A DNA stretch of 64,000 nt from Opitutales bacterium (GCA_028042835.1 JAOFOL010000008.1:674-64673), one strand, 5' to 3'; counted from the stretch's first letter, positions 15,234 to 17,098 are shown. Notes: generated from the letters alone by a model not told the origin. A program made the numbers and translations.

Positions 15234-15809
15234 TCAAGGAAGCATTTCTTCCCGAATCAGGCGCCCGGCCTCATCCCACAATCTTCTTCCGCGATAATTT
15301 CCCTCGCTCCAATATTCCTCTTCTCTAATCAAGCCATTTCCCCACCATCTACTTTTAATACCAGATAGTCTTCCGTTATCAAAAGTTGCTTCAAGTGCAG
15401 GGTTTCCACTCTCGAAATACCTTATTTGAATACCATGAGGGAGTCCGTTAAGGTATGAGGAATCCATCATTACCCCACCATCATCAAATCGATCTATAAT
15501 CCGGCCTGTGAAAGGATCTTCTAATCCCTGCCTGTACACCAATCCCCCCTCGCCAGAGGTTGATTCATTCGAAGATATAGCAGGATAACTTACCAAAGGT
15601 TTCTCGTAATCTGATAAAATTTCGACTGTGTTCCTATCTTTTGAAATGAACCTAGGATTTACAATGATGTTCTCATCGTTTTCCATAATCGAAGGTTGTT
15701 GATAATTTTGCTTACTTTCAACACCCTCGTCATCACAACCTAAGGAAAGTAAACTCAGTACGGCAAAAAAAGTTACTAAGCACTTCCTTGAGTAAATATT
15801 TTTAAACAT
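15234..15809 (-). CDS. lipoprotein with MORN-variant (YwqK-like) repeats
   Basis: Lipobox LSLGC; PFTG then repeated Y-x-NG-x2-HG-x3-YFESG / F-x-NG-x3-G-x4-WW-x-NG units. Confidence 0.8.
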   Translation of the reverse strand: MFKNIYSRKCLVTFFAVLSLLSLGCDDEGVESKQNYQQPSIMENDENIIVNPRFISKDRNTVEILSDYEKPLVSYPAISSNESTSGEGGLVYRQGLEDPFTGRIIDRFDDGGVMMDSSYLNGLPHGIQIRYFESGNPALEATFDNGRLSGIKSRWWGNGLIREEEYWSEGNYRGRRLWDEAGRLIREEMLP

Positions 15810-15848
15810 TATTTTCTTAGGAGAATTAAAACAAGATATTCCAAGCAA

Positions 15849-16145
15849 CTACCATTTTTCATCCGCAAGGATTCTTGATGCCACGAACTCCATAGGATCA
15901 ATTGAATCTTGCATACCAAGATTTGGTACAGAATGGGGATCGTCTGGCATCTTCATTAATTTATCAACAAATCTACCGATATATTCTTTGCTAATTTCAT
16001 TATCTGTTGAAAAATTTACTAGGTTATCAACAGAGGTAGTTGTTTCTAAATTAGTTTTTTTGGATGGTTGGGATGGTTTAATATAGTCTTTGATATGAAT
16101 CACAATGGTTAAGCCTAAATGGCAGAATAATGAATTGTGATTCAC
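15849..16145 (-). CDS. small hypothetical protein, possibly FlgM-like anti-sigma28 factor
   Basis: 98 aa; AGGAGG 5 nt before GTG 16145 (in-frame alternative GTG 16103); polar N-half and helical C-half; lies downstream of a sigma28 promoter. Confidence 0.55.
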   Translation of the reverse strand: MNHNSLFCHLGLTIVIHIKDYIKPSQPSKKTNLETTTSVDNLVNFSTDNEISKEYIGRFVDKLMKMPDDPHSVPNLGMQDSIDPMEFVASRILADEKW

Positions 16146-16196
16146 TCCAACCTCCTGTGGGACTGAATCCTGAAATTAAGGTCACATCCGTGTGAC
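16146..16196 (-). promoter_or_regulatory. leader with three CsrA/RsmA-type GGA sites
   Basis: Hairpin GUCACA-CGGA-UGUGAC (16196-16181), CAGGAU (16172-16167) and CAGGAGG (16157-16151) overlapping the SD. Confidence 0.65.
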
Positions 16197-16204
16197 AGTT
16201 ATCA

Positions 16205-16231
16205 TAATCGGCAGATTTACTTTGAACTTTA
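16205..16231 (-). promoter_or_regulatory. sigma28 (FliA/SigD) promoter
   Basis: TAAA(GTT)-N15-GCCGATTA against consensus TAAA-N15-GCCGATAA; exact 15-nt spacer, intergenic, oriented toward the 98-aa ORF. Confidence 0.75.
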
Positions 16232-16285
16232 GGGAAAAATTCATTTTTTTCTTTCCTCCAGAGTAATTGAGGCAAATGATGCTGT

Positions 16286-17098
16286 ATGGAATCAGAAATA
16301 AAAAAGGCCTACAATAATAAGGAATTTCTTAACGGAAAGGAAGCTCGCCCGATTCGTGTACTTTGCGAATTAATTGAACCAGATGAAAGGTTAGATGAGC
16401 AAAATGTGGAGAATACTATCGTTTTTTTTGGATCAGCTAGACCTAAGCCATATGAAGCTGCTGAACGGGAACACGATGATTTTGAAAAGAAAATAAGCTC
16501 GAGCACCGAACTTTCCGATAAGGAAGAACAAAATCTTAACCGCCTGCGACGAATTAAGAAATTATCGAAATATTATGATGAAGCTGTAAATTTAGCAAAC
16601 AAGGTTAGCAAATGGTCGAGGAGTATAGAAACAAACTTACGTAACTGTTTTATTTGTTCGGGCGGGGGACCCGGAATCATGGAGGCGGCTAATCGCGGTG
16701 CAAATAATGCAGGGGAAAAATCAATTGCTTTAGGTATAAGTCTACCATTCGAGCAGGGAGTAAACAAATACGCCACACCTGAACTTTCATTTGAATTCCA
16801 CTACTTTTTTATTCGTAAATTCTATTTTTTATATCACGCAAAAGCAGTTTTTGTTTTCCCTGGTGGGTTTGGTACGATGGATGAATTATTTGAAACCCTT
16901 ACGCTCATCCAAACAGGTAAATTAGACAAGAAAATGCCGATATATCTTTTTGGTCGTGAATTTTGGGAAGGACTTATCAACTTTAATCAATTCGTTGAGT
17001 GGGGTGTCATATCCCCTAATGACATATCCCTGTTTAAAATAGTAGATAGCGTGGACGAGGCATACAAATTACTTGTTCATGACTTGGAATCATCATAG
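16286..17098 (+). CDS. LOG family nucleotide phosphoribohydrolase (long type)
   Basis: VFFGSAR, SGGGPGIMEAANRGA, FFIRK, PGGFGTMDE. Confidence 0.92.
   Translation: MESEIKKAYNNKEFLNGKEARPIRVLCELIEPDERLDEQNVENTIVFFGSARPKPYEAAEREHDDFEKKISSSTELSDKEEQNLNRLRRIKKLSKYYDEAVNLANKVSKWSRSIETNLRNCFICSGGGPGIMEAANRGANNAGEKSIALGISLPFEQGVNKYATPELSFEFHYFFIRKFYFLYHAKAVFVFPGGFGTMDELFETLTLIQTGKLDKKMPIYLFGREFWEGLINFNQFVEWGVISPNDISLFKIVDSVDEAYKLLVHDLESS

Follow-up and report, generated by a model that had tools for sequence, protein, structure and literature searches.

Introduction

Sigma-28 or sigma-D promoters combined with CsrA sites make up the architecture of hag in Bacillus subtilis and flaA in Campylobacter jejuni, where FliW, CsrA and flagellin form a partner switch. 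In Escherichia coli, ymdA and moaA are activated by CsrA, the binding of which remodels an inhibitory structure. The structure of the complex between sigma-28 and FlgM has already been solved. A study of C. jejuni reported that numerous flagellar mRNAs of classes 2 and 3 are copurified with CsrA and that CsrA causes a shift of flgM RNA in vitro (Dugar et al. 2016, PMC4894983). For flgM the evidence consists of enrichment in co-immunoprecipitation and of a gel shift only, and no dedicated structured leader is described (PMC4894983).

Here we analyze a minus-strand locus in a stretch of 64,000 nucleotides from an Opitutales bacterium (GCA_028042835.1, JAOFOL010000008.1:674-64673), which is referred to below as the window. 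The first-pass annotation, made from the sequence alone, had read this locus as a sigma-28 promoter feeding directly into a CsrA-type leader with three GGA sites, on the model of hag. The elements to which we refer are the following (positions are those of the window).

16226..16232, minus strand: -35 element CTAAAGT of a sigma-28 (FliA)-type promoter, identified from the conservation of 41 leaders
16204..16212, minus strand: -10 element GCCGATTAT, core CGAYTR, with CGA invariant and the next T(A/G) nearly so in 41 leaders
16181..16196, minus strand: hairpin HP1, GUCACA-CGGA-UGUGAC, perfect, about 8-9 nt after the -10 element
about 16172-16167, minus strand: CAGGAU, a middle GGA site present only in the closest clade
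16164..16170, minus strand: segment A, GGAUUCA, 5' arm of the outer HP2 helix and candidate anti-sequestor
16146..16162, minus strand: inner HP2 hairpin, UCCCAC-AGGAG-GUUGGA, presenting ACAGGAGGU, the second GGA site
16134..16145, minus strand: segment B, GUGAAUCACAAU, which pairs with A (through GAAUC) or with C and contains GTG 16145
16113..16123, minus strand: HP3, a small hairpin within a variable spacer, capping the sequestering helix
16095..16106, minus strand: segment C, AUUGUGAUUCAU, holding the start GUG (16103-16101) and perfectly complementary to B
15849..16103, minus strand: gene of an 84-aa acidic, largely disordered protein with two helices, a candidate FlgM-like anti-sigma-28 factor
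15234..15812, minus strand: downstream lipoprotein-like gene, about 192 aa, with a weak MORN_2 match, 36 nt past the stop of the 84-aa gene

The hairpins, the CAGGAU and the GTG described in the first-pass annotation are all present on the minus strand where it had placed them. The locus resembles hag and flaA in its sigma-28-type promoter, in its 5'-proximal hairpin with a GGA loop, in a second GGA in an AGGAGG context and in a csrA gene beside fliW, and the same layout is also seen in the flagellin leaders of this genus. Unlike hag and flaA, the gene here does not encode a flagellin and its CsrA sites are predicted; the second GGA lies 47 nt upstream of the true start without overlap with a Shine-Dalgarno (SD) sequence, and the leader adds a helix that sequesters the start codon and has an alternative pairing. 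The comparison with hag was apt, as the same promoter type precedes flagellin genes with GGA-hairpin leaders, but it failed in the assignment of the SD and of the start. With ymdA and moaA the locus shares an initiation region sequestered by a helix and GGA sites upstream of the start site, and it is thus compatible with activation by remodelling of the structure; there is, however, no homology, and it is the start codon that is hidden here and not the SD. As for flgM of C. jejuni, the mRNA of an anti-sigma-28 factor (here a candidate one) would be the target of a FliW-controlled CsrA (PMC4894983), whereas the protein encoded here is unrecognizable as a Pfam FlgM and its mRNA carries a conserved structured leader of 95 nt.

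Results

Distribution of the leader

Searches with DNA and with a protein profile found the small gene in 42 of the 76 genomes of the family, including 32 of 43 in the genus of the window and 9 of 20 in a second genus. The leaders of the two genera comprised 41 distinct sequences in the alignment and 47 after the search with a covariance model. Common to the 47 are the promoter, a covarying hairpin of the CsrA consensus, a covarying AGGAG hairpin and the start-codon helix. The covariance model found one copy of the leader in this genome and no match in a sample of 145 genomes drawn from the order's other families, and a scan of the whole window against Rfam gave no family at the gathering threshold. 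The leader always directly precedes the conserved ORF, tandem duplicates included. It is almost certainly a real, conserved and lineage-specific cis-regulatory element.

Tandem duplicates of the small gene were observed in the relatives G069, G050, G073 and G046 (L048, L050, L055 and L057), at distances of 500-640 nt, each copy with its own promoter and full leader.

The promoter

The promoter consists, on the minus strand, of CTAAAGT (16232-16226), a 15-nt spacer and CCGATTAT (16211-16204). The TAAA-N15-GCCGATTA of the first-pass annotation was found at 16231-16205, with TAAA at 16231-16228 and GCCGATTA at 16212-16205, and the -10 element has one mismatch to the textbook sequence, GCCGATAA. 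In the aligned leaders the pattern reads (C/T)T(A/T)AAG-N16-CGA, followed by (T/C)T(A/G). Within it, T-AAG-N16-CGA is invariant in all 41 and the remaining A of TAAAG is nearly so; CGA follows the -35 element at a constant distance of 16 nt, across a spacer of unconserved sequence.

The loose pattern alone (TAAA-N14-16-GCCGATAA, with at most one mismatch) occurs at chance level, with 30 matches in the 2.1-Mb genome against about 32 expected by our own estimate from base composition. A scan with fixed spacing gave 11 intergenic matches, none of them near flagellar genes in this fragmentary MAG. The promoter is nevertheless non-random, because it is conserved across the leaders. We also scanned five relatives with genomes at least 95% complete for the strict pattern CTAAAG-N16-CGAYTA and obtained 16 matches, compared with 2 for the reversed pattern used as a control. 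Four of the 16 are the leader studied here and six lie in flagellin clusters, where four precede a giant flagellin of about 1000 aa (Flagellin_N, E = 2.5e-24). In the genome of the window, the one fully readable flagellin promoter (C73) showed no clear match to the sigma-28 motif, and a flagellin-family gene on C45 is preceded by TAAA-N16-CGAATAT. The cognate sigma factor is encoded at C15:20124-20798 (TIGR02479, 200.6 bits against a cut-off of 189.6), and FliA was found in 41 of 44 genomes of the genus. Taken together, the promoter is very probably of the sigma-28 type. Transcription would then start a few nucleotides before HP1, a position of the RNA 5' end that we infer from the promoter.

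Several other observations concern the promoter region and its motif. Directly upstream of the -35 element most leaders carry an A-tract, 3-8 nt and a T-tract (AAAAAAATGAATTTTTCC; 16233-16262 on the minus strand of the window), a possible UP-like element or binding site. On the plus strand, a weak sigma-70-like GTCACA-16-CATAAT (9/12, 16181-16208) overlaps HP1 and faces the divergent gene of the LOG family at 16286-17098; a match of this quality is within chance expectation. This genome has a single further strict CTAAAG-N16-CGAYTA match (C23:8749-8776, minus strand), which lies just past a long unannotated ORF and before a gene that looks leucine-rich-repeat-like by eye. In the relative G036 (C93:24417-24444, L148) the same strict motif precedes a secreted LRR protein confirmed by Pfam, and the LRR gene downstream of the motif may belong to the sigma-28 regulon without being flagellar.

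The start codon

In the first-pass annotation GTG 16145 was taken as the start of the gene and AGGAGG as its SD, the only strong one noticed in the window. None of these three points was borne out. The window contains 36 copies of AGGAGG on its two strands, 14 of which read AGGAGGT. The homologues of the protein begin at V/M-IHIKDYIK, which corresponds to GTG 16103, and AGGAGG is located 47 nt upstream of this codon. The 98-aa ORF that begins at GTG 16145 has six database homologues: three of 84-85 aa and one of 86 aa, all starting at the downstream GTG, and two longer calls of 113 and 141 aa that run into the leader (by another count in our analysis, the longer calls are three). In a 95%-identical relative, GTG 16145 is thrown out of frame by a deletion of 1 nt between the two GTGs. 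Within this 42-nt interval (16145-16104) another clade has an in-frame TAA, and in yet another GAG replaces the first GTG. Among the 41 leaders the triplet at this position is GTG, ATG or TTG in some and GAG, CTA, TCG, GCG, TTA, ACG or TCA in others, and the peptide between the two GTGs is unconserved among the relatives. Because of the indel, the stops or the missing start codon in relatives, we regard 16145-16104 as non-coding, and the comparison of homologues indicates that the true start codon is GTG 16103, which gives a protein of 84 aa. A leader peptide translated from 16145 under the control of AGGAGG was also considered and was rejected, as its start triplet, its frame and its peptide are all unconserved.

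The absence of an SD at GUG 16103 is normal for this genome, since SD motifs are not enriched before starts: they were found before 9.7% of starts and 14.5% of intragenic controls in a rough, ORF-based estimate over the whole genome. Without a general use of the SD, it should therefore be the accessibility of the start codon that decides translation. The AGGAGG, in turn, is not the SD of the true start, and its conservation thus needs another explanation. The strong AAGGAGG motifs that we encountered in the genome were in flagellar leaders.

Structure of the leader

In HP1 the loop has the form CA-N-GGA-U-G; CANGGAUG is constant while the stem covaries, with compensatory changes at three pairs (CG/UG/UA, CG/UA and GC/AU/GU). 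In the inner HP2 hairpin two pairs covary (AU/UA/GC/GU and UA/CG/UG), and the second loop reads ACAGGAGGU in 40 of 41 leaders; the single natural variant, ACAGGAUGU, keeps the GGA and loses the complementarity to the anti-SD. Of the three GGA sites proposed in the first-pass annotation, the HP1 loop and the ACAGGAGGU loop are therefore conserved, whereas the middle CAGGAU is confined to the closest clade. The promoter together with these two loops is conserved in 40-47 leaders. HP1 is weakly flagged as an intrinsic terminator in the sequence of the window, and we rejected this assignment, as the U-run after HP1 is unconserved.

The start-codon helix (8-12 bp) pairs AUCACAAY with RUUGUGAU. Its 8-bp core is about 98% paired and its top pair covaries (CG in 25, UA in 12 and UG in 6 cases). 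The sequence of HP3 is unconserved, yet the hairpin is predicted in most leaders, with compensatory changes at 6 of 6 pairs in an alignment that was fitted by the covariance model and so leans towards the structure. MFE folding of the 41 leaders one by one left the start codon paired in nearly every case. The mean probability that the GUG is unpaired was 0.016, compared with 0.19 when the upstream part was shuffled, and 38 of 40 leaders had a value below 0.1. Neither the 75-nt nor the 121-nt fold was unusually stable in comparison with shuffled sequences (z = -1.07 and -1.23). The covariation score of the whole structure was 0.344, compared with 0.157 for shuffles and at most 0.086 when the partners were slid, and RNAalifold, run independently, agreed with the pair counts on four helices including the start-codon helix. 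In the outer HP2 helix and in most of the start-codon helix the sequence is conserved rather than covarying, and for this reason the pairing is inferred there mainly from complementarity.

The 5' arm of the start-codon helix, in segment B, overlaps GAAUC. In all 40 of 40 leaders the G(A/G)UUC of segment A can pair with GAAUC in the correct register, with one-sided changes only. As the arm may pair either upstream or with the start region, two mutually exclusive folds are expected, one with the start hidden and one with the start free; for the sequence of the window they were calculated at -27.6 and -25.0, a gap of 2.6 kcal/mol. Judged from these predicted pairings, the anatomy of the leader is that of a sequestor/anti-sequestor switch.

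The link to CsrA

The genes named in the first-pass annotation as those to look for, fliA, csrA, fliW and flagellin, are all encoded in the genome, the last in several copies. The csrA gene adjoins fliW at C15:5602-6386, within the flagellar cluster. CsrA is encoded in 60 of the 76 genomes of the family, and co-occurrence across the family was uninformative, CsrA being nearly universal there.

Together with its closing pairs, the HP1 loop, ACA(A/C/U)GGAUGU, corresponds to the published CsrA/RsmE consensus. The leader has two conserved GGA motifs, of which the one in HP1 stands in a hairpin loop matching (A/U)CANGGANG(U/A). No GGA overlaps an SD or the start codon, the nearest conserved one being the GGA located 47 nt upstream of GTG 16103. 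Thus, occlusion of the hag type is not applicable, and the direction of control is not readable from the sequence.

Hairpins of the type CA-N-GGA-N-G with a stem of at least 4 bp occur 68 times in the genome, and only about five of them are intergenic: the leader studied here, two before the C45 flagellin-family gene, one terminator and one that is unexplained. In the high-quality genomes of the genus, CA-N-GGA-N-G motifs together with AAGGAGG were carried by 21 of 25 flagellin leaders, the hairpin status of these motifs being mostly read by eye. The C73 flagellin leader of this genome has GCGUACAAGGAUGUCGC in a bulged hairpin and then AAGGAGG. The leader of the giant flagellin, about 110 nt long, has three GGA motifs that look hairpin-like by eye, the last one at an SD-like AAGGAGG. 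These data make CsrA the most economical putative ligand of the leader, a reading that we hold on balance, and the leader is probably a CsrA-controlled leader of the late flagellar type. ACAGGAGGU varies less than a GGA site alone would require, which could point to a different partner, for example 16S rRNA or another protein.

As regards the flagellin genes themselves, the 441-aa flagellin-family gene on C45, outside the window, has its two GGA hairpins, GGAAUUGCAAGGAUGCAAUU and AAGCAAGGAGGCUU, at C45:51830-52010 (plus strand); downstream of the AAGGAGG there, a 12-codon ORF comes first, before the flagellin-like start some 24 nt farther along. Genomes of the genus contain up to 17 flagellin paralogues (G036, G051, G059, G068 and others; L139-L141, L150), including forms of about 960-1010 aa with GTG starts.

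The 84-aa protein and the downstream gene

The proteins of the family are acidic, 82-97 aa long, and share the motifs (V/M)I(H/Y/F)(I/F)xDYL, EEIGKWVDxLMxMPE and DPxxxVAERILSEE. An exhaustive profile search of 1.84 billion representatives returned only 73 clusters, and none of these small relatives formed a bridge to FlgM. No Pfam family was matched, and PF04316 gave no match in 68 members (38 + 30) at a permissive E-value. A profile search of the PDB found no match, the best one (rabphilin, E = 0.48) being judged as chance. Comparison by hhalign with the Pfam-positive FlgM of a sister genus was not significant (probability 0.9%), and no similar leader was evident by eye in the region upstream of that flgM.

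In the AlphaFold (AF2) model the chain is disordered apart from two helices (pLDDT 69, pTM 0.26). In the predicted complex with the FliA of this lineage the median score was 0.74, compared with 0.01 for the best control, both values being model confidence; the prediction thus passes the mark for a complex, which is reached by 58 of 80 solved complexes and by 2 of 110 mismatched pairs. The runs with FliA showed at least 73% agreement of contacts and a pLDDT of the partner of at least 56. According to the model, the C-terminal helix is placed on region 4 of FliA (residues 201-262) and the middle helix on region 2 (residues 39-76). Since a solved sigma-28/FlgM complex exists, the score may partly reflect likeness to it and not binding.

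The protein resembles FlgM (PF04316) in its size (about 85-95 aa), in being largely disordered with C-terminal helices, in the sigma-28-type promoter of its gene and in the predicted contacts to regions 2 and 4 of FliA. It differs from FlgM in the conserved N-terminal (V/M)I(H/Y/F)(I/F)xDYL and in having no canonical central helix, and its gene is not located beside flgN-flgK. A Pfam FlgM was found in none of the 63 genomes of the two genera with the 84-aa family and in both genomes of the sister genus without it, and two further genera have neither. The flagellar cluster of this genome has FlgN and no FlgM beside it. Taking the predicted complex into account, an FlgM-like function of the 84-aa product appears rather probable. 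The gene is, as the first-pass annotation had stated, not a flagellin gene, and we refine its description to that of a probable diverged FlgM-like gene with a predicted FliA complex.

Two further ORFs of the flagellar cluster were noted, an 88-aa ORF without a Pfam family between motB-like and flgF-like genes (C15:18108-18374, minus strand) and a 113-aa unknown ORF just upstream of fliA.

Terminator prediction between the 84-aa gene and the lipoprotein-like gene was negative. The neighbourhood of the two genes is kept in close relatives and lost in more distant leaders, and in the closest clade the lipoprotein-like gene is possibly co-transcribed with the 84-aa gene.

Discussion

Our results are best explained by a promoter and a 5' leader of about 95 nt that belong to a late-flagellar, FlgM-like gene and are tuned by CsrA, a reading to which we assign a probability of roughly 55%. 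The FliA-type promoter would drive transcription of the leader, beginning a few nucleotides before HP1. The leader would then alternate between two states, one in which the long helix hides GUG 16103 and one in which the GAUUC-GAAUC pairing frees the start. A CsrA dimer might bridge the two GGA loops, which are about 34 nt apart, and in this way shift the equilibrium of the folds, so that the FliW-CsrA-flagellin checkpoint would set the synthesis of the 84-aa predicted sigma-28 binder. As to the direction of control, we lean towards activation via a stabilized anti-sequestor fold, because the default fold hides the start codon; repression is the alternative.

The conserved switch may possibly respond to a ligand other than CsrA, with the GGA and AGGAGGU loops serving another partner, such as the anti-SD of 16S rRNA (ribosome standby or tethering), an sRNA or another RNA-binding protein, or it may couple translation to the flagellar type III secretion of the product. 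The nearly invariant ACAGGAGGU is a full SD complement and is the more conspicuous as the SD is otherwise unused in the genome, and the sequestered start codon implies that some activator is needed. However, the HP1 loop fits the CsrA consensus and recurs in the flagellin leaders of the genus, the one loop variant that drops the SD complementarity retains the GGA, and AGGAGGU lies at 33-75 nt from the start codon with no start following it consistently. Control of flgM by sRNAs is known from E. coli and C. jejuni (PMC7549644, PMC11187230), and this speaks for a partner of that kind.

Very improbable, in our opinion, is the arrangement known from hag, with GTG 16145 as the start, AGGAGG as its SD and CsrA as a repressor occluding it. 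AGGAGG does stand 5 nt before GTG 16145, in frame with the ORF, and some relatives have ATG, TTG or GTG at this position; yet in the database the 84-86-aa homologues begin at the second of the two GTGs, other relatives have the 1-nt deletion, the in-frame TAA or a non-start triplet, and the intervening peptide is unconserved, so that this model is contradicted by the comparative data. Equally hard to sustain is the alternative, raised in the first-pass annotation, of a separate sigma-28-driven small RNA that sponges CsrA, for which the two or three GGA motifs in loops, the titration of CsrA by the C. jejuni flaA 5'UTR (PMC4894983) and the weakly terminator-like HP1 of this one sequence might be quoted, but only two GGA sites and no U-run after HP1 are conserved, no terminator separates the leader from the ORF with which it is always fused and contiguous, and the leader is present here in one copy per genome and has no Rfam match.

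Returning to the proposed CsrA-tuned leader of a FlgM-like gene, what is new in comparison with the described systems is a dedicated, covarying two-state leader and a start-codon sequestor in a genome that is not reliant on the SD, to which a candidate anti-sigma-28 family in Verrucomicrobiota-like marine bacteria, proposed on the basis of the modelled complex, may be added. The leader is a defined RNA element with 47 distinct copies and no entry in Rfam, in which covariation is clear and the two-state design explicit. It also offers a case study of translation governed by start-codon accessibility in a lineage with no reliance on SD pairing. For two genera in which a Pfam FlgM went undetected in 63 genomes, the 84-aa protein provides a candidate anti-sigma-28 factor. 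The locus also suggests a link between the two classical checkpoints of flagellar assembly in marine Verrucomicrobiota. In the most far-reaching version, which we regard as speculative and rather doubtful, CsrA would be an activator that clamps the GGA loops, frees the GUG and raises the level of a new kind of anti-sigma-28 factor, and so links the checkpoints. If this were true, then upon stalled flagellin export FliW would be occupied by flagellin and CsrA would be free; the free CsrA would block the translation of flagellin and, via the leader, would switch off transcription by sigma-28. In this way a single circuit would join the FliW-CsrA checkpoint to that of FlgM and FliA.
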